Translations under genes and position numbers: made by a program
Assembly: GCA_963707915.1 (NCBI GenBank)
Contig: OY970178.1
Location: forward strand, 2,080,001 to 2,144,000
Length of the DNA stretch: 64,000 bases
DNA from: Candidatus Eiseniibacteriota bacterium
GTDB taxonomy: Bacteria > Eisenbacteria > RBG-16-71-46
Direction: 5' to 3'
Shown here: in pieces, positions 1,211 through 21,751 of the stretch
Layout: every line of letters begins with the position of its first letter
How positions within the stretch are numbered: the stretch's first letter is position 1
Notes under the pieces: generated by a model
What the model saw: the letters and a program-made list of their open reading frames with translations, nothing else
What the model was told of the DNA's origin: nothing
The model's database searches: none

Positions 1211-1260
1211 AACGGGCGGGGTCAGCGCCCGCCCGCAGATGGCCTGGGGGGCGCGACACG

Positions 1261-1683
1261 GTGCGTGATACCGCTTCGCTGACTGCCTGAAACACGCGGT
1301 CCCGCGCCGCGCCCCTTGTGTCGGTATTCAAGCACCCGGCGAAACCGCGAGTCAACGGAGTTCGCAGGTTCGATCCCGGCGAACGGGATGGTTTCGCCGA
1401 CGGGGAGAATCGGCGACAATGGGGCCGCATGATGTCGCCCTGGCCCGCGCGGTGGAGCCGTCGCGCTTCACCGGACCGCCTTCGCGCACCCACCGGAGAG
1501 CCGCATGAGCCTCAGCCGCTGGTCCGTAGCCGCGCTCGCGATCGCGCTCGTCTGCCCCTTCCCCGCCATGGCCGCTGACGCCGGCGCGCTCGACTCCCTG
1601 GTCGCCGCCGAGCGCGCCTTCGCCCGGGCGTCGATCGAGAAGGGGGTGCGCGACGCGTTCCTCGAGTTCCTCGCCGAGGACGG
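1261..1683 (+). repeat. Left copy of ~422-bp direct repeat bounding the toxin island
   Basis: Aligns by eye with 12779-13200 with about 12 substitutions and one 1-nt indel. Confidence 0.95.
1505..1683 (+). pseudogene. Truncated duplicate of the 5' end of the NTF2/DUF4440-type gene
   Basis: MSLSRWSVAA...FLAEDG identical to the protein at 13022, then runs into unrelated island sequence (stop at 1771). Confidence 0.85.
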
Positions 1684-1781: not shown

Positions 1782-2228
1782 CTACCGTCGGCTGACGGGG
1801 TAACCACTGACCTCCAGATTCAGCTGTGCTTCCGCCACCTGACGCAGGAACCCCGGTTCGAACACGACACTACACGCGAACATCCGTCGGCCTCCCACGA
1901 ACAGCGCGACGTCAATAGTGCTCTCCGCTCCTGACGCCAGTAGGTCATCTATCATTCCTCGATGCCTCTTTAGATAACGTCGCGTGCTTTCTACCAGCTG
2001 CCCTGCCGTCTCTGCCTTCGCTACGCCTACAACAAGCCCGTTCTTATCTGCCACGCGCCCAAGCGCATCCGCCTCGCCCTTGCGCCATACCTTGTTGGGC
2101 CTGAGCCTTGGCCACCTCTTAGAGAACACGTCAACATCAAACCGCTCCCCAGCGCTACGCAGCACTGCACTGAACATGGCTGTCTCTCGCTTGTCGGCCT
2201 TCTCGCCCTTGCTACGTCGGAACTTCAC
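1782..2228 (-). CDS. Putative immunity protein (DUF4279-like by resemblance)
   Basis: Directly downstream of the toxin; GTG at 2228 overlaps the toxin TGA (alternative ATG at 2177); small alpha/beta protein ending LEVSGY. Confidence 0.65.
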   Translation of the reverse strand: MKFRRSKGEKADKRETAMFSAVLRSAGERFDVDVFSKRWPRLRPNKVWRKGEADALGRVADKNGLVVGVAKAETAGQLVESTRRYLKRHRGMIDDLLASGAESTIDVALFVGGRRMFACSVVFEPGFLRQVAEAQLNLEVSGYPVSRR

Positions 2229-4745
2229 ACCCCTGGCATTCGCCGGGCTCCCCGGGGCAGCAGGAAGTCGAAATAGTCGTCTCTCGGAAGCCACACAGGA
2301 ACTGGCACGGCCAACGGCGAGCGGAACCCCGGCGGGTTCTTGGGAGTCCTCAGCCAGGTCTTCCGCTTCCCCGCTCGTGGTTTGCCCTCGTCTTCCCATT
2401 GCTTACACCATCTCCGAGCCTCTTCGCGCGTCAGAACGCGGCCGTGTGGCTCATTGGGCAACACATTCTCATGGAGCCACTCCCAGAACTCCTCACTGAG
2501 GCCGAATCTCGGATCTGTCGCTCTCGGCCAAGTCCCCTCGGGGTCTGTGAAGCCCACGGGATCCCCAAACGCAAAGAGATAGAGATTCTCGCCTCCTGCC
2601 GAGAGCCCCGCCGGATCCTTGCACGTCCACCTTCCCACACCCGGATCATAGTCCCTCGCGCCGAATCTCACCAGCCCTGTTGCCGCGTCCCATAGCCCGC
2701 CGGCGTACCCGAAGCACTGGAACCCAACGTTCGTGTCCTCGAGCACACGCCCGTACGTGTCATAGTCCATCCGCTGTACGGTTTCGCCCGTGGCGGCATC
2801 CAGCACTAGCCGCACCGACCCAAGGCGGTCCGACACAATCCTGTACGTATTCCCGTTCCTCACCATGTACTCCGGCACGTTTCGCGCAGCGCCATAGACA
2901 TACCGCGCAACTACGTTCCCCACGCTGTCCAACTCAGCAACTGGTTTCAGTTGATCCTCGTAGAGCCATCCCCGCCTTAGGACTCCGTTCCATCTGCACG
3001 CGACCCGCCGACTGAGACCGTCGACAAGATACTCCATTAAGTCGCCGCTGGGGAATCCAACCGTCACCAAGTTACCGAGGGCGTCGTACGTGTAGCGGAT
3101 GGTGTCTGCACCAGTCGCCGCCGTCTTGAGTTCCCCTGCCGGTGTGTAGGCGTAGCTGGTTCCGCCGTACCTCAGTAGCCGGTCCTGCGCGTCGTACGTC
3201 GCAGTGCTGGTGTCGCTCGCGCTGCTGTGCGCCAAGCGGTTACCGTTGCCATCGTAGCTGTAGTGCTCTGTGACGCCGTCGACCGTGGCCGCCGACACGA
3301 AGCCCGAGTCTGGACTGCCGTAGGCGAAACCGTATGAACGCTCAGTGCCCTGCACCGTCTCCATCACGCCCACGACGCGCCCCAGTGAATCACGACTGTA
3401 CGTAGCCTCATACAGCGTGGTGCCGTTGGACCTCACCGTGCGCCGCCATAGCTCACCAACGTGCGAGTAGCTGTCCGTGGTCGTGACATTCCCTAGTGTC
3501 GTGCTGGAGACCAGCCCGTTGTCCAACCGTCTCGTGATGGATAGGTCGCCAGCCTGAGTCATCAGCCCGTCAGCGTCGTACGAGTAGACGACGGTGTTGC
3601 CCCCATTGACCCGCTGGCTTGCCACACGGAAGTCGCGGTCCAGCGCCACCGAAACGCTCCCGGTCGCGCGACCGCTCCAGGCTTGGATCGTGTCCACCGG
3701 ACCATCGTAGCCGTACGACAGAAATATGCTGTCCGGCGAGCTGATCGTGTGGAGCTGTCCTGTACTGAGGTAGGACAGTTGTGTGGTGCCACGGCCCATC
3801 CCGATGGCGTAGAGGCGCCCGTCGCCAGACCCGTAGCTGGCTGTCACGTATTCGCCACCGGGACGGTCGCTCCGAACCTGCACTCCGTCGTGGTCGTAGC
3901 TGTATGCGGTCACGGAGTCCGTCTCGCCAGCACCCGGCGCGACGTACGTGCTCAGCGAGTTCACACCATTGTACTCATACGCATGCTGCGGCCGCCCGGG
4001 CGGGGTTATGCCGACGAGGTTCCATTCCTCGTCATGGGACAGCGCGATGGTCCTTCCGCCCGGGAGTCGAATCTCCGTCGGCCGGTCATCAGACAGGTAC
4101 GACAAGCCAGTGACTCGACCCAGTGTGTCACGAATCGTGTTGAGGCGCCCATGTGCGTCGTAGCTGAAGCGGGCGCCTCGCCCGCCCTGATAGACGTGCG
4201 TTGGACGCCACCACGCGTCGTAGCTGCAGTAGAGGGTGGCGAGTCCCTGTACCGACACGCTCTGGACTCGACCTGCCGAGTCCACAACGGTGGTCCTGAC
4301 CCGCCCGGATGGCGAGTACTCCCTCAGGATTAGGCTGTCGGGGTTCGAGTTGAACGTCGTGCGGTACGCCGCGCGCGAGTTGATGCTGACGTCCTGCGTC
4401 CATGTCCCGGTGACCGCAGGAGGAGCGTAGTGCGAGGGCATGGTCCGCGACACCTCGACGGTCCTGGTGAGTCCACTCGGCAGGGTGGTGCGCCTGAGTC
4501 CCAGAACCGGGACTCCCATCCCAAACCGGAGGTCTGGCATGAGGCTGTCGCTGGTGACTATTCCATCCGGCGCATGGATGACCCGCCATCTGCCGTCGCT
4601 GGACTCCGTCATCGTCGTCGAGAGGCCAGCGGGGTCAATGACCTCCCGCTCCCGACTTCCGTCCCAGTTGCCTGTCACCGCATACCCAGTGACGCGCCCC
4701 TCTCCACTGGTCACTTCAACGGTCCGGCGCATGCCCTCGAAGATC
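2225..4745 (-). pseudogene. Teneurin-like YD/Rhs toxin, 3' fragment (YD repeats, Rhs core, ~100-aa C-terminal tip)
   Basis: YD repeats (YDAHGRL, YDGNGNRL, YDALGNL); Rhs core FGYAGGLWD...GARDYDP.VGRW..KDP...DPVGFTDPEG; separated from its 5' half by the IS. Confidence 0.9.
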
Positions 4746-4822
4746 GGGGTGACGTAGCCCCCGGAAGCTGACACAGAACGAGTAGCCAGTCCTCTGCTAG
4801 CCTGAACGGCACGGAGGATCTC

Positions 4823-5092
4823 ATGGCGAGCACGGGGAAGCGTTACAGCGAAGAGCAGATCATCGCGATCCTGAAGGAGGCGGACAGCGCCGGGAACGTC
4901 GGCGAGCTGATCCGGCGCCACGGGATCTCCGCCCACACCTACTACCGCTGGAAGAGCAAGTACGGTGGCCTGGAGGTGAGCGAGGCGCGGCGGCTCAAGC
5001 AACTCGAGGACGAGAACCGCCGACTTAAGCGGATCGTCGCCGACCAGACGCTGAACATCCAGATCCTGAAGGAAGCGCTGGGAAAAGACTGA
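4823..5092 (+). CDS. IS3 transposase OrfA (HTH)
   Basis: RYSEEQIIAILKEA...YYRWKSKYGGLEVSEARRLKQLEDENRRLK. Confidence 0.95.
   Translation: MASTGKRYSEEQIIAILKEADSAGNVGELIRRHGISAHTYYRWKSKYGGLEVSEARRLKQLEDENRRLKRIVADQTLNIQILKEALGKD
5080..5087 (+). other. -1 programmed ribosomal frameshift site (orfA to orfB)
   Basis: G GGA AAA G at the end of orfA; orfB lies in the -1 frame, as in IS3 elements. Confidence 0.7.
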
Positions 5093-5172
5093 CGACGGCT
5101 GCGGCCCGGCGCGCCGCCGTCCTGGAAGCCCGTTCACGCCATGCCGGACTCTCGGAGCGACGCGCCTGCACG

Positions 5173-5940
5173 GTGCTGGGTACGCCGCTGTCGGGCCAGC
5201 GCTATCGATCACGTCGCGCTCCGCAGGAGGCGCTGCGCCAGCGGCTGCGCGAGCTGGCGCTGATCCGGCTGCGCTGGGGCTATCGGCGGTTGCATCGCGT
5301 GCTCACGCGCGAGGGGCTGCGGGTGAACGTCAAGCGCGTCTACCGCCTGTACCGCGAGGAGGGTCTGGCCGTGCGGCGGCGGAAGCGCAAGCGGGTGGCG
5401 GTGGCGCGGCAACCGATGCTGGTGCCGACGCGGCTGAATGAGTGCTGGGCGATGGACTTCATGTCGGACGTGCTGTCGAGCGGACGACGCTATCGGGTGT
5501 TCAATGTGGTTGACGTGCTGAGCCGCGAGGCGCTCGCCGCCGAGGTCGACACCAGCCTGCCGGCGGCTCGGGTGATCCGGGCGCTGGAGGAGATTGCGAT
5601 CATGCGAGGCTATCCGGCGCGGATCACGCTCGACAACGGGCCGGAGTTCCGCAGCATGGCGCTGGACACCTGGGCGTACGAGCACGGGGTGGTGCTCGAC
5701 TTCATCCAGCCCGGCAAGCCGATCCAGAACAGCATGGTGGAGAGCTACAACGGTCGGATGCGTGACGAGCTGCTCAACCTGCACTGGTGGCGGAGCATCG
5801 GCGAAGCGCGCGACGCGATCGACGCCTACCGGCAGGACTTCAACGAGGCCCGGCCACACAGCGGCCTCGGTCACAAGACGCCGAGCGAGTTCGCCCGGCA
5901 CTATGCGGTAAACTCGAACCCGCAGCGGCTGGCCTCTTGA
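5173..5940 (+). CDS. IS3 transposase OrfB (DDE integrase core)
   Basis: WAMDF, VVD, LDNGPEF, PGKPIQNSMVESYNGRMRDE, RPHSGLG. Confidence 0.95.
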   Translation: MLGTPLSGQRYRSRRAPQEALRQRLRELALIRLRWGYRRLHRVLTREGLRVNVKRVYRLYREEGLAVRRRKRKRVAVARQPMLVPTRLNECWAMDFMSDVLSSGRRYRVFNVVDVLSREALAAEVDTSLPAARVIRALEEIAIMRGYPARITLDNGPEFRSMALDTWAYEHGVVLDFIQPGKPIQNSMVESYNGRMRDELLNLHWWRSIGEARDAIDAYRQDFNEARPHSGLGHKTPSEFARHYAVNSNPQRLAS

Positions 5941-5967
5941 TCTGTACCAGCGTTGGGGGCTACGTCA

Positions 5968-8900
5968 GGGGTGCTCAGCTGCTGCTGGATTCCCGTCGAG
6001 AGCGGCGCCCAATCCTCCGCCAGTCGCCCGTCACTCGCGTAGGTGAACGTATGTTGGTTACCCACGGCGTCTGTGTAGCTCTCGAGCAGACCACTGGTGG
6101 AAGTTGTAAGCGTGACGGTCGCATCCAGCGGACCACTCATCTCACTCAAGTATCCGTTTGCATCGAGCGAAAGCGTTGTGCGATGGCCGTAGGGCCCATC
6201 GATCCACAGCGGGACGCCGTTCCCGTCGCGGCCGATGGTTGTCGCCAGACCCGCCGCGTCGCGGATACTGGCCAACCGCCCCGCAGCGTCGTAGCCGAAC
6301 CGGTAGCGGATGCCTCCGGTCACTCCATCGCGCGTGTAGAGGTGTCGCCCAGCAGAATCCCCCTGCGTGGCGAACACGTACACCTCGCTGCCGTCCTTGC
6401 TTGGCACGCTGTACGCGAGCCCGTTCTCGGTGAGAGGCGGGGATTCCTTCCAGAGCATGAAGTGCCCGCCCAGGACCAGCTTGTTCTCGGGGCTGCAGGT
6501 CACGACCACGGCATGCACCAGGCTGGTCGCATCCATGGGGCCCGGTGCCTCAGCTGGCAGGGACACGGAAGGGGAATACGCGTAGACGTGCTCCACCGTG
6601 CCATCCTGGTTGCAGCGGAGCAGCAGACGCCCCCACGCAAAGGCGTAGTTGGGGGGGGAAAGCGATCGTGTCAGCAAGTAGATGGCCCCATCAGGGGCCA
6701 GCGCGATGTCGTACACCGCGCACCACGCGCTCTGGAACTCGGGTTCGTCGACGGCGGGGTAGCCGTCAAAGAACAGGCTCATGATTCCCTGGGGCGTGAC
6801 CCGGCGGACCTTGAGACCCGGACGTCCCTCGGCAATGTACAGCGCGCCGTCTCGATCGACCTCCAAGTCCTCAGGCCGCCCGATGTTCATGAGGGTCGCT
6901 CTTCCAGTCGTGTCGCTGAAGCTGGACCCACCCGCCCCGGCGTAGTCAGTGATCGTCCCGTCTGTGCCGATTCTCCTGACGCGGAAGTCTGTTGTTGACG
7001 AGTAGCTCGGACCGTTGCATTCGCCCAAGAAGAGACTCCCATCAGGGCCCAGGGCGAGAGACGAGATATGGCCGGTCCACGCGGCCTCCGTCGGCAGTCC
7101 GTCTCCACCACCCGCAACGTATCCAGCGCGTCCACCGATGACCTTGTGGATCATGCCATCAGGCGTCACAACACAGACCAGGCTCTGGTCCGGTGCCGCG
7201 TCATTGCTGGACGCGACGTAGACCGAACCGTCCGGCCCAATCGCAAGCCCGGTGATCCTGTTTGGGAAAGAGCGTTCGCGCGCGGGCCCGTCTCCACTGT
7301 ATGCGGCGCGCTGGTTCGTGCCGGCGATGCGTCTGACCATGCCGCTGCGGTCCACTCGCAGGACTGAGTACCGGCAGTCGTCTGCGATGTACAAGGCCCC
7401 ATTCGGACCGTATGCGACGCGTGTGGGATACACGGACAGCAACTCCCCCGAGTCTGGCTCGGCGGTGTCGCACAGGCCTGTCGCGAGGTTGTGCCACATG
7501 TGGCTCGGCACAGGCAGCACACCCCCATCCCCAAGGTAGACGGCACCTTCTGCCGTCGGATCGAAGGTGTGGTGTGGGCTCAGGGTCCAGCCTCCCAGGC
7601 CGTCCACAGCAGTGCCCGGCACGCCGAGGCTGATTGACTGCCGGTTCCACACGATCTGGCCGACCGCCCGGTCTCCCACCGTCAGCCCGAGCATGCCTCC
7701 CGTGTATGAGGCGTTCCCGAATGACTTCGCAAGTCGCTCCGCCGAGCCACCGGCGATCGACAGGGGGAACACATAGCCGACGCTCACCTTCGCAGTGATC
7801 GCCCGATCCACGAAGCGCCCGTAGGCGTCACGCCCATCCCACACGAGCGTCACCGGTTCCGTGGCGGACGTGATGGGACCCGGTACTCTGACTGAGTACT
7901 GCTTCCCGGCGACATCGAGATTGACGATCACCCCCTGAAGCCCGTTCGGCACCGTCTCGCCAATCACGGGGACCCGGATCGTTCGCATGACGGCATCCCC
8001 GGGCGCCCGGAAGCTCCTGTAGTTCAGGGAGTAGGGAGTGCCGGACACCGGCACACGCTCGCCCAGCGTCCTATCCTCGCACTCGATGATGGACCCCTGA
8101 ATCTCGCATGGCTCCGGGGTCTTCGACTCCATGTGCGGCACGGTCCCCGGCCTTCGCACGTAGTCCGTGAGCGGTGCCACGCTGAAGTTGCAGTCGGCAT
8201 TCGAGAACCGATCGACCGAAGTCCGACAGAGCACCGCGCCCGGGCGGTACTGGGCTGCCAGCACCTGGAGTTCGGCTGCGCCGATACCCAGGCTGTCCAG
8301 AGTCGAGGTGCTGTCACGTGATCCGTCCCCGCTCACGTCGAGTGCGGCCGTGCCAGCGCTGTCGCCAAGGACCTGGATGATGCGGGCGTCCCTGCCAGCT
8401 ACCCACCTGCCATTGCGCCGATCATAGTACCCGTAGGGCACGACAGTACCGACGGGGTAGTCGAGGAAGTTCGGGACGTAGAACACCACGGGCTTGGAGA
8501 ACACCACATCAGGGGCCGGCAGCGTGGGTTGCAGGATTCGTCCTATGGAATCGGCCTCATCCACGCTGAAGTCCACGCAGTACGTGTAGGCTGTCGCGGG
8601 GGGCAGTAGGGCTGGCATGGCCTTGGCGCCGTCCGCCCCCACGGTGTACTCGGTGAGTCGCAAGCGGATGTCGGTCAGCGCCGCGGTGTCACCGGGTGCC
8701 CGTGCGATCCGCGCCACCGTCCCCCCTTGGAACAGCACTCGGATCTCCCGGTCCCCGTTGGCATCCGTGGAGAAGCGGCCGTGCACGACCTGAAGCGAGT
8801 CGAGTTGGACCACATGCACGCGACGGCTCTTGCCGATCAGCGCAACGGTGTCCTGGATGGCGAACTCGTTCACCGCCGGCAAGCAGGCACGCTGCGCTTC

Positions 8901-10550
8901 CAGATACCCGGGCTTGCTGAAGCGCAGGGTCAACGGCGCACCGCCATTGACTACCAGGTCGAACTGGCCGTCGGCTCTGGTCGCCGTGTATCCGAATTCG
9001 TCGTGGCCAAGGACTCTCACTGTGACGTTTGGGAGCGCACCGAAGTCCCGCGCCGTGACACGCCCGCGAACAACGGCCGCCACCTCCGGCCTCAGGCTGT
9101 CTGGCACGACATCGTACTGTTGCTGAGATCCGTTCTCACCCGTGAACAGGAAGCTCACCTGGTCCAGAAACGGCGTGGTCGTGGTTGCGTTCAGGGGTGA
9201 GGGTGTGACCGTGGAGTCCGGCGGCGCACCCTCTCCGACCAGCGTGCGGAACACGTAGCGCTTGAAGCTCGTCGTGTGGCCCAGCGCATCGGTCGCGCGG
9301 AAGAAGATACCGTTGGGACCGACGTCCAAGTCCAGCGTGTCGACAAAGGTCCCAGCGGTCCCCACCGCGACCGGCTCGCCGTCCACTTCGACCACGGTGT
9401 GGGTGATGTCGCTCCACGACCCCGAGACGATCCAGAGACTATCGGTGGTCGGCGAGGTGGCCTCAGGCACGGTGAGCGTCGGAGCATGCGTGTCCCGAAT
9501 CACGGTGCGCACAAGCTCGGTCGAGTACCCCGCGCGGTTCGCGGCATGAACGGTCACCGTGTGGGCGCCCTCGGAAGACAGCGCCAGCGAGTCGGCGAAG
9601 TAGGTGGTGACCGTATCGCTCGTCACGTGCGCGGTCAGCGAGTTCACCTGCACCGTGCCGGGCGTCTCGTCGCTCACGCTGCCGCTGATCGTCACGCGGC
9701 TCGAGTCCACGAGCAGCGTATCCGTAGCCGGACGCAGCAGCGCGAGCCGGGGCGCAGTACTGTCGGTCGCCGTGACTTCGACCTGCGCGCGGGCATCCGT
9801 GCTGCCTGCCAGCGAGAGCGAATAGTCGTTGAGCGAGTCGAGTGCGACCCGCCGCGTGAGCCGGGCCGTGCCCGACCCGAACTCACTGCTGCTGATCACC
9901 TCGTCGCCGTTCAGGCCGAGGATGCCGCCGGTCACACGGTGGGTGCCATCGGGGTCGCCGTTGGTCAGGATCAGGGTGTAGGGGCCCCTCGCGCTGTCCG
10001 ACTTGGTGAACTCCCCGTCGAACTCCTGCCAGCCCGCCGGGGTGGAAGCCCGCGTGTGCGTGGCAGGCCCGTGGATCCGGTACGACGACGGGTCCGGTAT
10101 GCTCACCAGGTCCAGGCGGATGTGGCTGCCGGTTGACCCCTTCTTGACCCCCACGGTGAGTGCGTTGCTCTCCAGCGGCTCGGCCCTCTTCACCGCATAG
10201 GCCACCGTGCTGGTCACGTCCGCGGCGTTCATCAACTCCTGGTCGTTGAGGCAGAGGCTCACCTGAGCAACGCGATGGGTGCCGTTGGGGTCCCCGTTGG
10301 TGATGCGGAACTCGTACCGGCGGGAGACGTCGTAGTTGCTGAGGTCGAACGAGGTGTCCTTGACAGTCCAAGTCGGACTGCCACAAGTGAACTGACCCGG
10401 CCCGAACACCACGGTCGTCTCCGGCGGACTGCTGCTCAGACTCGTCACCCGCACCCCACCTCGCGGCAACGGCGTGCTCCCGGCCACCAGCACCAACCCC
10501 AGGAGCCCGAGCAGAACAGCCAGCGCGCGCTGCCTCCTGGCCACGTTCAC
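5968..10550 (-). pseudogene. Teneurin-like protein, 5' fragment (signal peptide, Ig-like domains, TTR/FN-plug, NHL propeller, first YD repeats)
   Basis: Hydrophobic N-terminus; VVRGRV...GYTATRADGQFDLVVNGG, ERVPVSGTPYSLNYRS, WDGRDAYG...VSVGY, GGWTLSPHH; NHL repeats (GPNGALYIAD, GPDGSVYV). Confidence 0.9.
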
Positions 10551-12691
10551 TGGAGCACCACCACTCGGTCGGTGCGCGTCACGCGCCCCTGACCCAGGCG
10601 GATGAAGTACATCCCACTACGGAGGTGCCCGGGCAGCCTCAGTCGCACCTCATGGTCTCCGGCCCCCAGATCACCGAACTCCCGTGACAGCACCCTTCGA
10701 CCCGCGACGTCGAACAACTCGAACCGCGCCGGCTCGTTGGTCTCCAAGGTCAACGCCACGCGCACCACACGGCCGCGTTCCTCGCTGCGTGCGAACCGCA
10801 GCGCTAGCGGCTTGGGCAACGGGATCTTCACGTCCACCGTGGCGAACTGGATCTCCTGCTGTTCGTCACCGACCTTGACACTCAGCCCGTACTGGGCTGC
10901 GCTTCCAACCGGCACCGTGCGGTCCTCGGCGACTAGCAGCCCGTCGGCCGCGGCTTGAAGCGCGCTCAGCGACTGCCACGCTCCATCCCCCAGGCGCCGC
11001 TGGAACAAGAACACGCGCTTGTCCGCCGTGCTGGTGCGCCAGGTGAGCTTCGCCCGCCCCGGGCCCACCTCCACGGCCTCGAGCTTGGGGACCGGCCCGG
11101 TGCGCGGCGCCTGCAGGGCCAGGAACCCCGCCAGCGCCTCGACCCGGCCGTCCACCCAGGTGGCCAGCGCGCCCCCGGCGCCGTCAGGGGCCAGCCTCAC
11201 CGCGTACTGATCGCCACCCGCCACGCAGAGCGCCACGCCGTCGTCGGCCCACTGCGGCACCCCGGCACCGGTGATCCGCCGGGCATAGATATCGCTGTTG
11301 CCGTTGCGGCGGTCCTCCCAGGCGACGATCGCCCCGCCCACGCTATCGCTGACAAGGGCGGGCATCGCCGGGGCACCGCTCGGCCCGCAGAGCTGCACGC
11401 CGCTCGTGGGCCACTCCACGTGCCCTGCGCCGCTCAACCGCTGGGCACGGATCCCGGTCGAGTCGGCCCAGGCCACGATCGCCCCGTGCGCACCGTCACC
11501 CACCGCTACGGTCTGCCGCATCCGGCCCCGAGTGGTCGAAAGCCTGACTCCGGCAGAGGGCCAGCCGGTTGCCGGCCGGCCGTTGGCACTCAAGCGCAGG
11601 GCTGAGATCCCGGGGAGCGTATCGCGCCGGCTCCCCCAGACCAGAATCGCCCCACCCTCCCCATCGCTCGTCAATGTCGGATTCGTTGGGTCCTCGCCGC
11701 TCGTGACCAGCGTGTCGCCGCCTGCCGCCGCTCCCGCAGCGAGTTCGCCCTGCGGGGTGAGGTGCTGCACATACAGGTCCGCGACCCCACGGCGGCGGTC
11801 CCGCCAAACAATCAGCGCCCCGCCTTCGCCATCGGACACCACGGCGGGGGAACTCTGGTCGGCTGGGTGGTCGCACACCGGCACCCCATCCACACCCCAC
11901 GCGGGCTCACCGGCGCTGGTCAGGCGTTGAGCGAAGATGTCCCCGGACGCGCCGGAGCGGAAGTCCGTCCACGCCACGATCACGCCACCGGCACCGTCAC
12001 TGGCGAGTGCCACCCCGTACTGCGAACCGCGGGCGACGCAGACCGGGACACCATCGGTGGACCAACCCGGCCAGAGCGAGTCTGCGGCGGCGAAGTGCTG
12101 GGCGTAGAGGTCGCCCTCCTCCATCCGGTTGTCCACCCAGACCACGATGCCACCGCCCAGCCCGTCACGAATCATGCTCGCCGCCACGCCCTGCGCGCTG
12201 CCGAGGCAGAGCCGCGACTGCAGCAGGCTGGTGTCCGGCGCGATCGTGCCATCTGCGCCCACGTGCTGGGCCTGGATCGCCAGGGAAAGCCCGCTGCGGA
12301 AGTCGGTGCAGGTGGTGCACACGCCGGGCAGGGAATCCGGCCCTGACTCCCCGCCCGCGACAATGCCCCCGCCAGGCTGCGGGGCCCCGGGCCGTACCGT
12401 GCTCGCCACTGGCGGCGTCGCCTCGCCGGGGAAGACCTGGTCGGCACCGCCCACCTCGTGCCAGCGGCCTGACCCCGGAGTTGCTCTAGGAGGCACCTGA
12501 GTGCCGCGCGCTCCGGGCTGGGGTTGATCTACCCACGGCCCACGATCGCCCGGCGCGCCGGGCGCTGGCCGCGTGGGCTGCGGGGCTTCGTTTGGCGGAG
12601 TTGGAGCCTGCGGGGCCTTGCTGCGAAGAGTCGGGGTCCAAGCAATGCAGGCAAGGGACAGGAGCAGCATCAAACCGCGGCCAGGCCCCAT
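10547..12691 (-). CDS. Secreted 7-repeat beta-propeller protein with T9SS type A/FlgD-like C-terminal domain
   Basis: ATG at 12691 with GGAGAG RBS; signal peptide; Pro-rich linker; seven DGxGGaivaWxDxR repeats; C-terminus FDVAGRRV...LRSGMYFIRL...VVVLQ; TGA overlaps the teneurin-like GTG. Confidence 0.8.
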   Translation of the reverse strand: MGPGRGLMLLLSLACIAWTPTLRSKAPQAPTPPNEAPQPTRPAPGAPGDRGPWVDQPQPGARGTQVPPRATPGSGRWHEVGGADQVFPGEATPPVASTVRPGAPQPGGGIVAGGESGPDSLPGVCTTCTDFRSGLSLAIQAQHVGADGTIAPDTSLLQSRLCLGSAQGVAASMIRDGLGGGIVVWVDNRMEEGDLYAQHFAAADSLWPGWSTDGVPVCVARGSQYGVALASDGAGGVIVAWTDFRSGASGDIFAQRLTSAGEPAWGVDGVPVCDHPADQSSPAVVSDGEGGALIVWRDRRRGVADLYVQHLTPQGELAAGAAAGGDTLVTSGEDPTNPTLTSDGEGGAILVWGSRRDTLPGISALRLSANGRPATGWPSAGVRLSTTRGRMRQTVAVGDGAHGAIVAWADSTGIRAQRLSGAGHVEWPTSGVQLCGPSGAPAMPALVSDSVGGAIVAWEDRRNGNSDIYARRITGAGVPQWADDGVALCVAGGDQYAVRLAPDGAGGALATWVDGRVEALAGFLALQAPRTGPVPKLEAVEVGPGRAKLTWRTSTADKRVFLFQRRLGDGAWQSLSALQAAADGLLVAEDRTVPVGSAAQYGLSVKVGDEQQEIQFATVDVKIPLPKPLALRFARSEERGRVVRVALTLETNEPARFELFDVAGRRVLSREFGDLGAGDHEVRLRLPGHLRSGMYFIRLGQGRVTRTDRVVVLQ

Positions 12692-12778
12692 GGTGGACTC
12701 TCCAGTCTGTGCGAGGCTGAATGAGAGAAGCGCGCTCCTCTCTGCCAGAGGAGACACATGCGACGCTTTGTAGGGTGC

Positions 12779-13200
12779 GTGCGTGATACCGTTTCGCTGA
12801 CTGCCTGAAACACGCGGTCGCGCGCCGCGCCCATTGTGCCGGTACTCAATCACCCGGCGAAACCGCGAGTCAACGGAGTTCACAGGTTCGATCCCGGCGG
12901 ACGGGCGGGTTTCGCCGACGGGGAGAATCGGCGACAATGGGGCCGCATGATGTCGCCCTGGCCCGCGCGGTGGAGCCGTCGCGCTTCACCGGACCGCTTC
13001 GCGCAACCACCGGAGAGCCGCATGAGCCTCAGCCGCTGGTCCGTAGCCGCACTCGCGATCGCGCTCGTCTGCCCCTTCCCCGCCATGGCCGCTGACGCCG
13101 GCGCGCTCGACTCCCTGGTCGCCGCCGAGCGCGCCTTCGCCCGGGCGTCGATCGAGAAGGGGGTGCGCGACGCGTTCCTCGAGTTCCTCGCCGAGGACGG
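12779..13200 (+). repeat. Right copy of ~422-bp direct repeat
   Basis: Matches 1261-1683; continues into the intact gene. Confidence 0.95.
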
Positions 13201-13906
13201 CGTCATCTTCCGTCCGCTGGCGGTCAACGGCCGGCAGGCCTGGGAATCGCGCGGCCCGGTCGCCGCTGCGCTGGTGTGGGAACCGGCCTTCGCGGAGGTC
13301 TCCGCGGCGGGGGACCTCGGCTACACGACAGGACCATGGGAGTGGCGGCCGAACGATTCGCAGCGCCCCACCGGATACGGGCACTTCGTTTCGGTCTGGC
13401 AGCAGCAGGCGGACGGGGCCTGGCGCGTGGCGGTGGACATCGGCATCGCCCACGGACCGCCGGCCCGCGGCCCGGGGAACGTGGAGCTCACGCCGGGCCC
13501 GCTCCACCGGGCGGTGCGGCGCACCGGGCCGCCGACCGACCTCGCGGCGCTCGACCTGGCCTGGACCCGCGACGCGCGCGCCCGGGGCTCGGCGGCGGCC
13601 TTCGCGCGCCGGGCCGCGCCGGACGTGCGCTATTGCCGCGACCTCCTCCCGCCGATCCTGGGACTGCCCGGCGGGCGCGAGACGCTGCGGGCCATCCCGG
13701 GCGTGACGCTCTGGTACCCGCAGGCGCAGCGGCTCGCGCGCTCCGACGACCTGGGCTGCACCTACGGGATCCTCGAGCGCCGCCGGATGGGCGGTGTCGC
13801 GCCCGACTCGAGCGTCTACCTGCACGTCTGGCGCCGCGACGGCGCCGGCCGGTGGAAGGTCGCCCTCGCGCTCGAGAGCCCGCTGCCCCAGGCGCGCGGC
13901 AAGTAG
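13022..13906 (+). CDS. Secreted tandem NTF2-like/DUF4440 family protein
   Basis: Signal peptide; AAERAFA...WEP...GDLGYTTGPW...SVW...W...D domain followed by a second degenerate copy. Confidence 0.75.
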   Translation: MSLSRWSVAALAIALVCPFPAMAADAGALDSLVAAERAFARASIEKGVRDAFLEFLAEDGVIFRPLAVNGRQAWESRGPVAAALVWEPAFAEVSAAGDLGYTTGPWEWRPNDSQRPTGYGHFVSVWQQQADGAWRVAVDIGIAHGPPARGPGNVELTPGPLHRAVRRTGPPTDLAALDLAWTRDARARGSAAAFARRAAPDVRYCRDLLPPILGLPGGRETLRAIPGVTLWYPQAQRLARSDDLGCTYGILERRRMGGVAPDSSVYLHVWRRDGAGRWKVALALESPLPQARGK

Positions 13907-16850: not shown

Positions 16851-17471
16851 TCAGGCCGCGCGTTCGTCCTCGGGGGACTCGTCGTCGCCCGGCTCCCCGC
16901 CGATGCGGAAGTCCTCGGTGGGGACGTCCTCGCCCGCGTCGAAGAACGACGTCAGGGCCGCGAGGTCGCGCTGTGCGTCGGTGTAGCCCGGGTTGATCCA
17001 CAGCGCGTGCCAGAGCAGCCGCAGGGCCATCTCGAGGCTGCCGACCTCGACGCACGCCGAGCCCGCCCGGTACCACAGCACCGGGTCGTGCGGCGAGCAC
17101 GACAGCCCGCGCAGGGCGTACGAGAGCGCCTCCCGCTCCTCGCCCTCCCGCAGGGCGATCTCCGCCGCCTCGGCGAAGGCGCGCGCGGCCTCGGCATTGG
17201 GTGCCGGATCGAGCCCGGGGATGAGCAGCTCGAGCTCGCCCATCACCAGCTTCAGGGTGTGGGTCACGTAGGGCTCGAGGCCCACGGACTTGTGCGTGAG
17301 CACGCGGTCCGCCAGGTGGGCCAGCGCACGTGTCACGTCGTTCAGCGTCGGTCGCGGGGAATCGGGCACGGCAGGTCTCCTGGGGACCGGAGTCGCGCCT
17401 GCCGCTCGTTGGTCGTCGCTGGACCCACCCTTCGATGGGCACCCAGCAGGGCGCAGGCGCGGAAGACTCAC
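16851..17471 (-). CDS. TPR-like hypothetical protein
   Basis: Helical TPR-like segments (LSCSPHDPVLWYRAG...ALWINPGYTDA); start uncertain. Confidence 0.6.
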   Translation of the reverse strand: MSLPRLRPAGCPSKGGSSDDQRAAGATPVPRRPAVPDSPRPTLNDVTRALAHLADRVLTHKSVGLEPYVTHTLKLVMGELELLIPGLDPAPNAEAARAFAEAAEIALREGEEREALSYALRGLSCSPHDPVLWYRAGSACVEVGSLEMALRLLWHALWINPGYTDAQRDLAALTSFFDAGEDVPTEDFRIGGEPGDDESPEDERAA

Positions 17472-17541
17472 GGTCCTGCACTCGTTATCGGCACAATCGC
17501 GGAGGACTTGATGAAGTGGGGAAAAAGGCCGTGAAACGGCC

Positions 17542-18429
17542 TCAAAGCCTCGCGAAACGGGGCTCCGCGACCCGCAGGAACTGTTCCAGCAGGTTCCCCG
17601 CGACCCGCCGCCGGTACTCGCGGTCCGAGCGGATGTCGTCGATCGGCGCGATGTCCTCGAGCAGCGCCGCGCGCGCCGCGGCCGCGACCGCGACGCCGGG
17701 GCGGGCGCCGAGCAGCGCGCGCTCGGCCCGGGCGGCCCGCAGCGTGACGGGTGCGACGCTGCCGAGCGCCACCCGCGCGAGGTCCACGCGGCCGTCGCGT
17801 CCGACCCGCAGCAGGCCGGCGAGGACGACCTTGGAGATGCTCTGCGCGCGGCGCGTCCCCACCTTGCGGAAGAACTGCCGCGCGCGCGCGGGAGCCGGCG
17901 GCAGGCTCACGGCGGTGATCAGCTCGTCGGGCTCGAGCGCGAGGTCGCGGTAGCCGCGGAAGAGGCCGGTGAAGGGGACCTCGCGCGGGCCCCGCAGGGA
18001 GCGCGCATGCACCACGGCCTCGAGCGCCAGGAGCACGGGCAGCGAGTCGCCCGCCGGCGAGGCGTTGGCGATGTTGCCGCCCAGCGTCCCGCGGTTCTGG
18101 ATCTGCCAGGCGCCGACCTCCGCGGCCGCGGCCGCGAGCGCGGGATAGCGCCGCCGTACCTGCGCGTGTTCGCGGACCTCGCTGAAGGTGGTCAGCGCGC
18201 CGAGGACCAGCCGGCCACCCTGCCCGCGCACGCCCCGCAGCTCGCGCAGGCCACCCAGGTCGAGGAAGCGCACCCCGGGCACCACGCCCGAATTGAGCGT
18301 GACGAAGAGATCCGTGCCCCCGGCCAGCGGCACCAGCCGCCCGGTGCCGAGCGAGGCGTGCAGCAGCTTCAGCGCGTGGGCGAGGTCGCGCGGGCGGGCG
18401 ACCTCGAGCGTGGAGAGCGGCGCCCTCAT
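17542..18429 (-). CDS. Xanthine dehydrogenase family FAD-binding subunit
   Basis: AGGTDL, QIQNRGTLGGNIANASPAGD, PIDDIRS. Confidence 0.9.
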   Translation of the reverse strand: MRAPLSTLEVARPRDLAHALKLLHASLGTGRLVPLAGGTDLFVTLNSGVVPGVRFLDLGGLRELRGVRGQGGRLVLGALTTFSEVREHAQVRRRYPALAAAAAEVGAWQIQNRGTLGGNIANASPAGDSLPVLLALEAVVHARSLRGPREVPFTGLFRGYRDLALEPDELITAVSLPPAPARARQFFRKVGTRRAQSISKVVLAGLLRVGRDGRVDLARVALGSVAPVTLRAARAERALLGARPGVAVAAAARAALLEDIAPIDDIRSDREYRRRVAGNLLEQFLRVAEPRFARL

Positions 18430-19046
18430 CGCCCGGCCCCCGGCCGGCGGCGGGCCACCCCGGCCGGCGCCCGCACCGCGGCCCCCCGCCGCGCCCGGGC
18501 CGGCGTGCGCGTCGCCTTCGCCCGCGCCGCCGGCTTCGGCGCGCGCGCGGACCGCTTGCGGACCGCGGCCTGCGACTCGCGCGCCGCCGCCCTCACGGCG
18601 TTCACGATCATCTGGTAGCCGGTGCAACGGCAGAGGTTCCCGGCGAGCGCCTCGCGCACCTCGCCGTCGCCGGGCACGCGGCCCTTGGCGCGGGCGAGCA
18701 GGGCGTGCGCGGTGACCAGGATGCCGGGCGTGCAGCTGCCGCACTGCGTGCCGCCGCGCTCGACGAACGCGCGCTGGAGCACGGAGAGAGCGGGGCCCTT
18801 CGCGAGGCCCTCGACCGTCACGATCCGCACGCCGGCGGCCTGGACCGCCGGCACCAGGCAGGAGTTCACCGGCATGCCGTCCATCAACACCGTGCAGGCG
18901 CCGCACTCCCCCTCGCCGCAGCCTTCCTTGGTGCCGGTCAGCCCGCAGTCCTCGCGCAGCACGTCGAGCAGCCGCTTCATCGGCGGCACGCGGACCCGGC
19001 GCTTCCTCCCGTTGACCGTGAAGTCCAGCGTCAGCACCGCGCTCAT
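18426..19046 (-). CDS. Xanthine dehydrogenase family (2Fe-2S) subunit
   Basis: GTKEGCGEGECGAC, QCGSCTPG, GNLCRCTGY; basic Ala/Arg tail. Confidence 0.92.
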   Translation of the reverse strand: MSAVLTLDFTVNGRKRRVRVPPMKRLLDVLREDCGLTGTKEGCGEGECGACTVLMDGMPVNSCLVPAVQAAGVRIVTVEGLAKGPALSVLQRAFVERGGTQCGSCTPGILVTAHALLARAKGRVPGDGEVREALAGNLCRCTGYQMIVNAVRAAARESQAAVRKRSARAPKPAARAKATRTPARARRGAAVRAPAGVARRRPGAGR

Positions 19047-21361
19047 CGCCGCTCCTCGCGCCCGCCCAGCGCGCGCAACAGCCGCTCGGGCGTGATCGGG
19101 ATCTCGTCCACGCGCGCGCCGGTGGCGTGCGCCACGGCCGCCACGACCGCTCCCGCCGGCACGTCCATGGGCAGCTCGCCCACCCCCTTGGCGCCGAACG
19201 GCCCGCCCGAGTAGGGGTTCTCGACGATGATCACGTCGAACGGCGGCGCGTCCACCGCGGTCGGGATGATGTAGTTCGTGAGCTGGTGGTTCCAGACGCG
19301 CCCGTCCTTCCAGCGCACCTCCTCGAGCAGGGCCCAGCCCAGTCCCTGCAGCGTGCCGCCCTCGATCTGCCCGGCGCACAGCAGCGGGTGGATCGCCTTG
19401 CCGATGTCCTGCGCGGTGGTGACGCGGAGCACGCGCACCTCGCCGGTGTCCAGATCCGCCTCGACCTCGACCGCGACCGCCCCGTACGAGAAGCACGGGT
19501 ACGCGTCGCCCTGGTAGGTGTCCTCGTTCCAGACGATGTGCGCCGGCTTCTGGTAGCGGCGCTCGACGCGCAGCGGCCCGCGCCCGGCGAGGAACCGCCG
19601 CGCGATCCGCCGGAAGTCCGCGTCGCCGTCGAGCGCGCGCTCGGCGAACAGCTCGAGCCGCTCGCGCATCGCCCGGGCGCACTGCTCGAGCAGTCCGCCC
19701 ACCACCATCGTGGTGCGCGAGGCCACCGTCGGGCCGCTGTTCGGCACCCGGTCGGTGTCCGGCGTCTCGACCACCACGAGGCCCGGCGACACGCCCAGGC
19801 GCTCGGCCACCATCTGCGTGAACACCGTGATGGCGCCCTGCCCGATCTCGACGTTGGCCACCAGCACCCGCGGCCGTCCCTCGGGCGACAGGTCGAGCGC
19901 GGCGAGCGAGTTGAGCCGGACCTCGCCACCGCCGGTGAAGCCCGCCCCGTGCCAGCCCAGCGCCAGCCCGATGCCGCGCCGCAGCCGGCGCCCGCCGGGC
20001 GCGAACCGGCCCGCCCGCTCGGCACGCTCCGCGGCGGCGTTCTCGCGCGCGTAGCGGCGGCGCTTCGCCGTCCAGCCCGCGCGCTGCGCGGTGCGGTCCA
20101 GCACCTCGACCGCGCTGACGCTCTCGCGCAGGACCTGCCCGGTCGGCGTCACGTCGCCCACGACGACCGCGTTGCGCCGGCGCAGGACCAGCGGGTCGAG
20201 CCCCAGTTCCGCGGCGACGCGGTCCATGTGGCTCTCCATCGCGAACACCGTCTGCGGCACGCCGAAGCCGCGGAACGCCCCGTTGGGCGGCGTATTGGTC
20301 GCCATCGCGCGCGCGCGGATCCGCACGTTGGGGCACCGGTAGGCGCCCGCCGCGTGCAGCGCCCCGCGCGAGAGCACCACCGGCGACATCGTCACGAAGG
20401 CGCCGCCGTCCATCACCACGTCCACGTCGGTCGCGACCAGCGTGCCGTCGCGCCGGTGCCCGGTGCGCACGCGGACCACCGCCGGATGGCGCTTCGTGGT
20501 GGCCGCGATGTCCTCGAGGCGGTCGTAGACCAGCTTCACCGGCCGGCCGCTCTTCCAGGCGAGCAGCGCCGCGTGCCCGCCGATCATCGACGGGTAGTCC
20601 TCCTTGCCGCCGAAGCCCCCGCCGGTGACCGTCTGGACCACGCGGATCTTCTCCGCCGGCAGGGCGAACGCGCGCTGCAGCGCGTGGTGCACGAAGTAGG
20701 GGCACTGCATCGAGCCGCGCACCACGAGGCCGCCGTCGGCCGTGCGCTCGCCGATCACGCCGTTGTTCTCGAGGTAGAGTTGCTCCTGGTGCCCGCAGCG
20801 GTAGAGCCCCTCGACCACGACGTCGGCCTCGGCGAAGCCCGCGGCCAGCTCGCCCCGCGCGATGTTGTACTCCTTGAGGACATTGTCCGCGCCGTGGATC
20901 TTCAGCCGCGCCGCGAGGGAGTCCTCGATCGTGAGCACCGCGTCGAGCGACTCCACTTCGACCCGCACCGCACCGAGGGCGGCCTGCGCCCGTTCGGGAT
21001 CGGCGTGCGCCAGCAGCAGGATGGCCTGGTCCGCGTGCTCGATCCGGTGCGCGACCAGCAGCGGCTGGTCCTCGGTGAGGTGGGCCACGCAGTTCTCGCC
21101 CGGGATGTCCTTGTGGTCGGCGATCACCACGCCGTTCCAGTCGAATGCCGGGTCGAACTCGATGCGGCGGATGACCCCGCGCGCGACCGTGGAACGCACG
21201 GTGCGCCCGTGGAGCAATCCGGGGACCTTCAGGTCGTCCACGTAGAGGGAGCGGCCGGTGACCTTGTCCTCCCCGTCGCGCTTGGGAACGTTCGCGCCCA
21301 CGGCCGGTTCGGGCCGCAACGTGGTCTTTCGGCGGGTGCTCAGCGTGGAGGCACGGGTCAT
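19043..21361 (-). CDS. Xanthine dehydrogenase family molybdopterin-binding subunit
   Basis: GGGFGGKE, AFRGFG, GQIEGG, GAKGVGE. Confidence 0.92.
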   Translation of the reverse strand: MTRASTLSTRRKTTLRPEPAVGANVPKRDGEDKVTGRSLYVDDLKVPGLLHGRTVRSTVARGVIRRIEFDPAFDWNGVVIADHKDIPGENCVAHLTEDQPLLVAHRIEHADQAILLLAHADPERAQAALGAVRVEVESLDAVLTIEDSLAARLKIHGADNVLKEYNIARGELAAGFAEADVVVEGLYRCGHQEQLYLENNGVIGERTADGGLVVRGSMQCPYFVHHALQRAFALPAEKIRVVQTVTGGGFGGKEDYPSMIGGHAALLAWKSGRPVKLVYDRLEDIAATTKRHPAVVRVRTGHRRDGTLVATDVDVVMDGGAFVTMSPVVLSRGALHAAGAYRCPNVRIRARAMATNTPPNGAFRGFGVPQTVFAMESHMDRVAAELGLDPLVLRRRNAVVVGDVTPTGQVLRESVSAVEVLDRTAQRAGWTAKRRRYARENAAAERAERAGRFAPGGRRLRRGIGLALGWHGAGFTGGGEVRLNSLAALDLSPEGRPRVLVANVEIGQGAITVFTQMVAERLGVSPGLVVVETPDTDRVPNSGPTVASRTTMVVGGLLEQCARAMRERLELFAERALDGDADFRRIARRFLAGRGPLRVERRYQKPAHIVWNEDTYQGDAYPCFSYGAVAVEVEADLDTGEVRVLRVTTAQDIGKAIHPLLCAGQIEGGTLQGLGWALLEEVRWKDGRVWNHQLTNYIIPTAVDAPPFDVIIVENPYSGGPFGAKGVGELPMDVPAGAVVAAVAHATGARVDEIPITPERLLRALGGREERR

Positions 21362-21426
21362 CCAAATCAGGTTACGACGCCGGACGCCGGTGCTCCAAAT
21401 CGACCGCGGAGCGGTCCACCTCGACC

Positions 21427-21707
21427 GGGCACAGCGGTGGGACGCAGACGCGGCGTGGAGGGCGAGCGTGTCCGTACCTGGCTGCCCTCCGCATCGTGTC
21501 GGTCCCGCCGCCCCCCGACCGGGCACAGCGGCGGGGCCGGCGCGGTCCGGAGGGCGAGCGTGTCCGTACGTAGCCGGCCTCCGGATCGTGCCGGTCCCGC
21601 CGCCCCCGCTCGAGCACGCGGCGGGGCGCAGACACGGTCCGGAGGGCGAGCGTGTCCGTACGTAGCCGTCCTCCGGATCGTGCCGGTCCCGCCGCCCCCG
21701 CTCGAGC
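21427..21707 (+). repeat. Three tandem 92-bp hairpin-forming repeats, family A
   Basis: GAGCGTGTCCGTAC cores at 21464, 21556 and 21648; each unit is internally complementary. Confidence 0.9.
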
Positions 21708-21751
21708 GAGCAACGGACACGTCGGCCGGTCGGCCGCGCCACCCGCCCCCA

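Follow-up and report, generated by a model that had tools for sequence, protein, structure and literature searches.

This report concerns a split gene for a teneurin-like protein (TLP) and its neighbors in a 64,000-bp stretch of contig OY970178.1 of a Candidatus Eiseniibacteriota bacterium (GenBank assembly GCA_963707915.1, positions 2,080,001 to 2,144,000 of the forward strand). The whole stretch is called the window, and positions are counted from its first letter. Bacterial TLPs were reportedly the subject of two papers before the cryo-electron microscopy (cryo-EM) study of 2026. The main text of that study (PMC13018210) provides a cryo-EM structure and covers TLPs from 139 genomes in six phyla, which it regards as polymorphic toxins: a cleaved tip resides inside a shell, tips were toxic in E. 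coli, and immunity genes are located downstream. It gives the delivery route as unknown, without an obvious delivery machinery, and states that animal teneurins have neither a TIP region nor an Rhs protease motif. The window TLP is a broken member of this known family, in a lineage-specific three-gene form that was not found in the literature searched. The overall explanation that is probably correct is a TLP toxin carrier split here by an insertion sequence (IS), with an upstream partner that would display its intact relatives on the cell surface.

Comparison with described systems

The closest described protein is the TLP of Bacillus inaquosorum (BiTLP). Both proteins have the same order of Ig-like domains, TTR, TIP, FN-plug, NHL propeller, YD shell, and a small variable tip, and they share both cleavage motifs, a hydrophobic N terminus, and a small gene directly downstream. 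The window TLP differs in two unnamed N-terminal beta domains, the lack of a lipoprotein cysteine, an unnamed tip, interruption by an IS, and a dedicated upstream partner with a type IX secretion system (T9SS)-like tail. Its host, Ca. Eisenbacteria, is outside the six phyla of PMC13018210, and searches of that paper's main text and searchable supplements did not detect this group.

Animal and choanoflagellate teneurins (6FB3, 8R50) possess the same scaffold of TTR, FN-plug, NHL, and YD shell, but a domain scan of the window TLP gave no match to EGF repeats, ABD, or Tox-GHH, an intracellular domain was not found, and a TIP region and an Rhs protease motif, bacterial features according to the main text of PMC13018210, are present instead. 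The Rhs and YD toxins (type VI secretion system Rhs proteins, TccC/YenC2) also have a YD shell, an Rhs core with two Asp motifs, and an exchangeable tip with an immunity gene. The same tip family occurs behind ordinary Rhs cores, and an orphan tip module was present in relative L020. In contrast to these toxins, the window TLP is capped by an FN-plug and NHL of the teneurin type and carries a predicted Sec signal, and its cassette contains no PAAR, VgrG, or Tc partner. The TANFOR toxins of Bacteroidetes, as described in the available text of PMC7073777, are likewise signal-peptide toxins without a sorting tail of their own that are encoded near genes of T9SS-tailed proteins, and their export by T9SS is hypothesized there, not shown. 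They differ in scaffold and phylum, and their link is an enrichment within 10 genes on either side, whereas the window system has one orthologous partner directly upstream.

Identity of the split gene

The gene between positions 10550 and 2225 on the minus strand is, judged by its sequence, almost certainly a bacterial TLP gene in two parts. Among solved structures, the 5' part matched the Bacillus TLP (9IFO/9PT5) with E = 5e-148 and 498 bits, the best stretch being residues 253 to 1242, and animal teneurins with E = 7e-34 to 4e-12 and at most 120 bits. The 3' part matched 9PT5 with E = 1e-71, and for both parts the Bacillus protein ranked well above animal teneurins and ordinary Rhs proteins. 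The Pfam model TTR_TEN1-4 was above its cutoff (E = 1.5e-21), FN-plug_TEN1-4 (E = 0.012) and TEN_NHL (E = 4e-4) gave weak matches below theirs, and TEN_YD-shell was matched in both parts, with E = 2e-23 on the 3' part, which also contained the Rhs core TIGR03696 (E = 3e-18). The domain order was TTR, TIP, FN-plug, NHL, and YD shell, with the last three adjacent, the shell interrupted by the IS, and the alignment unbroken across the BiTLP TIP region. Upstream of the shell, TTR, TIP, FN-plug, and NHL were aligned with the Bacillus protein over a length of about 800 residues. The residues of its internal cleavage site (C719, G723, and S724) and the catalytic Arg and two Asp of its Rhs protease (R2103, D2116, and D2140) are kept.

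The protein is a TLP rather than an ordinary Rhs protein, since its TTR, TIP, FN-plug, and NHL, none of which belongs to the YD repeats, match the bacterial TLP of solved structure. This agrees with the sequence-only reading, which had predicted matches to teneurin structures outside the YD repeats. The motifs quoted in that reading were found in place far beyond chance: VVRGRV (9074-9057), GYTATRADGQFDLVVNGG (8993-8940), LTLRF (8933-8919), ERVPVSGTPYSLNYRSFRAPG (8060-7998), VWDGRDAYG (7844-7818), AKVSVGY (7793-7773), and LGGWTLSPHH (7598-7569). The sequence of NHL followed by YD repeats also held, with six NHL-type blade motifs and YD repeats from about 6413, but the NHL span of 7418 to 6489 continued past position 6620, where it had been ended. 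The proposal to join the two parts was borne out by their end-to-end alignment on four relatives without a sizeable gap, their summed length being that of the intact relatives. In this clade, the single open reading frame described for TLPs in the main text of PMC13018210 is provided by intact relatives of 2,300 to 2,556 aa. In the window copy, one frame contains FN-plug, NHL, and the beginning of the shell, whereas the remainder of the shell is located beyond the IS, making it a broken member. The identification is right but not new, since the family has already been described as polymorphic toxins.

The presence of an Rhs core and the matches to animal teneurins down to E = 7e-34 could be taken to mean an ordinary Rhs protein or, conversely, a special intermediate close to animal teneurins. 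Both are hardly tenable given the alignment of about 800 residues upstream of the shell with the Bacillus TLP, and the second also conflicts with the TIP region and the protease motif, which are bacterial traits following the main text of PMC13018210, and with the bit scores for bacterial and animal proteins. By these two traits, the protein is of the bacterial toxin type, and nothing found here indicates a special closeness to the animal proteins.

Strong TLP matches were present in 8 of 61 related genomes, including that of the window, and weak NHL matches alone in seven more. A scan across species genomes confirmed 244 stretches, the best 80 of which were kept, and these contained TLPs from many phyla beyond the six of PMC13018210, among them Eisenbacteria, Verrucomicrobiota, Bacteroidota, Planctomycetota, Gemmatimonadota, and Nitrospirota. 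The sequence-only reading had called bacterial TLPs known but sparse; known they are, but with the 139 genomes in the main text of PMC13018210, they are no longer obscure. A FastTree phylogeny built from 83 TTR-to-FN-plug regions, which excluded animal sequences and omitted locus L107 for low coverage, placed the window TLP in a 16-member clade with a support of 99. The sampling should be extended to groups beyond the six phyla before it is decided which bacterial protein is closest to the animal teneurins.

The C-terminal tip and the gene downstream

The tip and the gene directly downstream of it are very probably a toxin and its immunity gene, as deduced from sequence relationships. The tips differ among the TLPs of the six complete relatives and of further ones. 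The tip comprises 101 aa in the window; in nine relatives the tips vary and comprise 88 to 159 aa, which agrees with the about 15 kDa required of TLP tips. Its conserved module, roughly 50 aa long, has two predicted helices (pLDDT, the per-residue confidence of the model, 76 to 89 over residues 11 to 50) and the invariant residues G, F, W, W, H, W, G, and P, and is followed by a variable, Pro-rich tail. Some members of the family end right at the module, while others add varied and often hydrophobic tails. A search of 1.84 billion representatives gave seven matches with four real relatives, a profile search gave at least 26 proteins behind Rhs cores among the best 8,000 candidates scored, and 23 of 24 metagenome loci were real. 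The matches P0002 (ankyrin), P0003 (Cna-B), and locus L135 were dropped as spurious. Nearly all relatives follow an Rhs cleavage motif, one of them in another TLP. No Pfam, NCBIfam, Atlas, or PDB profile matched the tip, and in fold searches the best Z was 3.1 with no Foldseek E value below 0.001, which does not by itself indicate a new fold. The invariant His and aromatic residues could, as a guess, serve in nucleic acid binding.

The small downstream gene co-occurs with the tip family. Of 20 genes behind homologous tips, 8 resembled it with scores past the inclusion threshold (best E = 3e-14). DUF4279 was matched by 6 of 15 aligned members, whereas the gene of the window itself gave no Pfam match. 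A direct homolog search with its product found none among 40 candidates, and a PDB profile search was blank. DUF4279 is classed as an immunity family in the available texts of PMC9424270 and PMC13304343. There, DUF4279 is paired with Ntox33 (PMC13304343) and the FdL class, to which FdL-Imm5 belongs, with BECR, VOC, and Ntox33 toxins (PMC9424270), and not with a two-helix module. A cytoplasmic target of the toxin would follow from the lack of a signal peptide in the immunity gene product. A two-helix tip was not found in a literature search that covered mostly papers available without subscription. Direct assays of the pair, which represents a small unnamed family, are possible.

Two related observations concern other tips. 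Loci L018 and L046 share another helical tip with a DRGHxKAIxQL motif and related downstream genes, a second unnamed pair. In L020, the TLP and immunity genes are followed by the orphan module of Rhs core, tip, and small gene (L020:14030-15503), and this by an IS3 element with 72 to 79% protein identity to the IS of the window.

The upstream partner

The partner, TLP, and small downstream genes are on the same strand; the partner stop overlaps the TLP start (GTGA), and a second overlap is possible at the next junction. The AlphaFold2 model of the partner (mean pLDDT of 80.6) contains a propeller with the best fold match to CylK (7RON; Z of 30.3, root mean square deviation of 3.2, 334 aligned residues). 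Its C-terminal tail matched TIGR04183 with E = 3.8e-5 and 23.6 bits at a cutoff of 23, gave a weak profile match to the mirolase chain 8QB1 (88 aa; E = 0.087), and was all-beta in the model.

The partner was located upstream of the TLP in seven of the eight relatives' loci and in 11 of the 80 TLP loci from all phyla, four of which repeat the relatives' seven. All partner loci belong to the Eisenbacteria clade with the exception of L065, which is outside the 16-member TLP clade. Within that clade, 14 of the 16 members have the partner, and the contigs of the other two start inside the TLP. In the reverse direction, a 13-row partner profile was run against 89 family genomes, and its top 20 rows were made up of the 13 loci used for training plus 7 that were new. 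All seven held-out partners were followed by a TLP N terminus at a distance of −4 to +9 bases, with three of the contigs ending before TTR. None of 14 lower-scoring paralogs had a TLP behind it, although four of them had too little downstream DNA to judge. In total, 22 distinct partner-plus-TLP loci were obtained, the pair was carried by 16 of the 89 genomes, and stop and start overlapped at 11 of the 18 junctions examined. The partner genes were separated from seven paralogs of this genome with a support of 100/99. Because related genomes are not independent, this linkage indicates that the pairing is old and stable, not that it arose repeatedly. The sequence identity of partners tracked that of the TLP N-terminal domains (rho of 0.60 and 0.61) over that of the TLP core (0.29).

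The N-terminal beta domains of the TLP matched nothing in Pfam or PDB; the Atlas placed them, at 0.92 and with low recognition, in a 113-aa cluster that has no name, which is a lead only. The paralogs of the partner were considered as general carriers and rejected, since none of 10 examined in this genome has a TLP-like giant gene behind it. A stand-alone paralog is located at G000:C1:2075353-2077428, about 3 kb before the start of the window. In genome G003, a second partner-type gene (L017:11190-11793) starts at the contig end, about 2.5 kb past the genes for the TLP and its immunity protein. A circular form of this contig was rejected for lack of terminal overlap; the second partner fragment is a different copy.

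Possible routes to the surface

By homology to the tested Bacillus TLP, intact relatives of the window TLP would be exported by Sec and cleaved in the FN-plug and at the Rhs core, the encapsulated tip would harm neighboring bacteria, and, following from gene pairing, the DUF4279-like protein would neutralize the tip. The TLP cannot bear a C-terminal sorting tail because its C terminus is the toxin. As it also has no lipoprotein cysteine, the partner may supply export or an anchor. This step is the least sure: the propeller protein would bind the TLP and with its T9SS-like tail provide export through the SprA translocon or anchoring at the surface. The chances that the partner has a physical role in display or export of the TLP are about even. 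A complete scenario, in which the partner binds the N-terminal region of the TLP, donates its tail in trans for SprA-dependent export or anchoring, perhaps without a canonical Gld motor, and in which the two-helix toxin is neutralized by DUF4279-like proteins, is possible but tentative.

Parts of such a system are present. SprA scored above its cutoff in this genome and was matched in 87 of the 89 family genomes, 78 of them above the cutoff. A PorV gene is located beside that of a large C25 peptidase (1,537-codon frame); SprA, PorV, and the PorU-like peptidase are found at G000:C1:3488116-3492663 and 473236-476376. Reading frames matching the T9SS tail profile numbered 79 in this genome, and the Eisenbacteria may have a reduced or divergent T9SS.

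A number of points weigh against the partner as the exporting component. Its tail profile was below the cutoff in all six partner relatives tested. GldK was found only below its cutoff in this genome, and GldL, GldM, and GldN were not found, with positive controls also silent for these three. With the four-of-five rule for SprA, GldK, GldL, GldM, and GldN in the available text of PMC7073777, this genome would not count as T9SS bearing. The correlation between partner and TLP N terminus is expected from physical linkage alone, the related genomes again not being independent. The N-terminal beta domain is not partner specific because it was found, as a single copy, in three Bacteroidota TLPs without a partner. 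The TLP of L023 (G015) has a different N terminus and no partner in the DNA fetched, the TLP of G020 contains a stop codon, and at least two more relatives are frameshifted. Finally, three secretin loci, each near a GspF/PilC gene, are present in this genome, and at four loci the TLPs of Bacteroidota and Kryptonia follow genes for type II secretion or pili, which indicates that another exit exists.

Alternatively, the TLP toxin carrier may leave the cell by a secretin system or in vesicles, and the partner may be a co-expressed, separately secreted adhesin or lectin that promotes contact with target cells but does not bind the TLP. In addition to these secretin loci and the T9SS motor genes that were not found, this possibility is in line with propeller lectins among the top fold matches of the partner (Z of 22 to 24) and with close paralogs that stand alone. 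The strict pairing in both directions, with all seven held-out partners and every clade member with upstream DNA, argues against such a loose role; together with the mostly overlapping stop and start, it suits a fixed stoichiometry better than loose co-regulation. This alternative is rated as rather doubtful, and display by the partner is preferred.

The route to the surface and the targets of TLPs are left open in the main text of PMC13018210, and a tail-bearing, lineage-fixed partner is a concrete candidate. If correct, this would give TLPs a first delivery route and represent hitchhiking export by a T9SS-like system outside the Bacteroidota, in which a 250-kDa toxin carrier borrows its sorting tail in trans. 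Searches detected no T9SS terms in the main text of PMC13018210 and no "Por secretion" in its searchable supplements. In the literature search described above, TLPs of Eisenbacteria and a dedicated upstream partner were not found, combinations of Eisenbacteria with T9SS, teneurin with Eisenbacteria, and teneurin-like with type IX secretion gave no result, and for piggyback export via a C-terminal domain only vesicle reviews were obtained.

Two side observations belong to other lineages. The TLPs of L059, L080, L096, and L102, which are directly behind secretin, GspF/PilC, or GspE genes, have 7 to 12 Ig-like repeats where scanned, hinting at type II secretion of TLPs in that lineage. The TLP of L023 (G015:C46) is longer than 3,600 aa, with 43 cysteine-rich repeats matching Dicty_CTDC before TTR, loosely recalling the cysteine-rich stalk of animal teneurins.

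State of the window copy

Members of the IS3 family encode OrfA with a helix-turn-helix motif and OrfB with a DDE integrase, have inverted ends of the type TG...CA, and generate target duplications of 3 to 4 bp. The element that interrupts the YD shell has these traits (Table 1), and a second, 100% identical copy is located at G000:C1:456053-457270. Because of this identical copy and the intact target duplication, the insertion is recent, and since it splits the gene, the window TLP is likely an inactive pseudogene.

The two parts nevertheless remain long open frames of 1,549 and 995 codons, and the 3' part is recorded as a predicted protein of its own with 849 aa. They might be functional, the 5' part as a lone adhesin or the 3' part with the tip made from a start in or next to the IS. 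This is improbable, as the break is inside the YD shell, the 3' part has no export signal, the insertion is recent, and no relative examined is split at this place. Even less probable is an assembly artifact in the IS or the direct repeats around the cassette with an intact gene in the organism. Such an artifact could be suspected from a single-contig assembly in a region spanned by no short-read contig, but the IS has proper ends and a target duplication, the two repeats differ at 3% of their positions, and a short-read contig from run X1, possibly the source sample, is identical to positions 4562 to 4779 across the left IS junction. This contig reaches only 30 bases into the IS, one below the bridging rule. 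Further broken TLPs of Eisenbacteria, with one stop codon and frameshifts, were observed at L016 (G020), L022/L065, and L047, which suggests frequent loss or assembly error.

Organization and mobility of the cassette

Table 1. Features of the TLP cassette and its borders in the window. The limits of TIP, FN-plug, and NHL were taken from the alignment with the Bacillus TLP and the ranges in the main text of PMC13018210.
Feature	Position	Strand	Basis or remark
Partner gene, 714 aa from ATG 12691	10547..12691	−	TIGR04183, beta_prop_Msarc repeats, AlphaFold2 model
Partner, hydrophobic N terminus and Pro-rich linker		−	N-terminal of propeller
Partner, beta-propeller, likely seven blades	~12328-11126	−	beta_prop_Msarc repeats, fold match
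Partner, FN3-like sandwich	~11086-10820	−	
Partner, T9SS type-A-like tail	~10804-10550	−	TIGR04183
TLP, 5' part, 1,527 codons	5968..10550	−	Pfam, structure-sequence search
TLP, predicted Sec signal	~10550-10479	−	Judged from charge and hydrophobicity only
TLP, two related unnamed beta domains	~10421-9765	−	
TLP, two Ig-like domains	~9758-9246	−	
TLP, TTR	9086-8841	−	Pfam TTR_TEN1-4
TLP, TIP	~8828-8244	−	Alignment to Bacillus TLP
TLP, FN-plug	~8243-7485	−	Alignment; cleavage-site Cys and Gly-Ser at 8108-8091
TLP, NHL propeller	~7484-6441	−	Alignment; YD shell starts after it
IS3-family insertion sequence, 1,218 bp	4750..5967	+	Pfam HTH_Tnp_1, rve, rve_3; inverted ends
IS orfA; orfB	4823-5092; ~5173-5940	+	
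IS target duplication, 4 bp	4746-4749 and 5968-5971		
TLP, 3' part, rest of YD shell and Rhs core	2531..4749	−	TIGR03696, TEN_YD-shell
Rhs protease residues	Arg 2656-2654; Asp 2617-2615, 2545-2543	−	Alignment to Bacillus TLP
C-terminal tip, 101 aa, predicted toxin	2225..2530	−	Relatives after Rhs cleavage motifs
Predicted immunity gene, DUF4279-like, 131 aa from ATG 2177	1782..2177	−	Similarity to genes after homologous tips
Alternative GTG start of immunity gene	2228	−	Overlaps TLP stop
Left direct repeat, 423 bp	1261..1683	+	Upstream region and first 60 codons of DUF4440 gene, truncated copy
Right direct repeat, 422 bp	12779..13200	+	Continues into intact DUF4440 gene (13022-13906)
Conserved hairpin, candidate small RNA	1248..1315	−	Outer edge of left repeat
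3'-truncated hairpin copy	12779-12833		Points into partner gene

The three genes form a cassette between the two direct repeats, which are 96.9% identical. Its site is empty in G004 and G005, where the two flanking genes are adjacent, and contains other genes in G003 and G007. The G+C fraction of the TLP and immunity genes is 0.60 to 0.66 versus 0.72 in the genome. No integrase was found in the cassette; integrase genes are located behind the TLP in two relatives. The cassette would have arrived through a recombination event in which 423 bp of the host site were duplicated, and the IS would have inserted recently; the simplest account that can be inferred is a single-crossover integration of incoming DNA carrying this host segment. 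Long flanking repeats as a general trait were not supported, being present at 1 of 18 other loci examined (96 bp, L200), many of them on short contigs, and carriage by phages was rejected, with one locus in the viral collection at 34% identity and not of this clade.

The hairpin at the outer edge of the left repeat (and at L151-L159), of about 68 to 85 nucleotides, was detected with E ≤ 0.01 in 13 genomes out of 61, 10 of which were used for an alignment, often after a TTGAC-type sequence and in varying gene contexts. Its pairs are kept at 96.9%, four of them with two-sided changes, and no credible Rfam match was obtained. It was rejected as a signal recognition particle RNA, which is encoded elsewhere, and as a tRNA, and it may be an unnamed small RNA of Eisenbacteria. 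The edge of the cassette repeat cuts the hairpin, and the truncated copy could drive the operon; a promoter scan of positions 12600 to 13100 scored no consensus promoter. Further away, positions 17000 to 21742 on the minus strand contain, judged from the open reading frame sequences, a putative xanthine-dehydrogenase-like three-subunit cluster.

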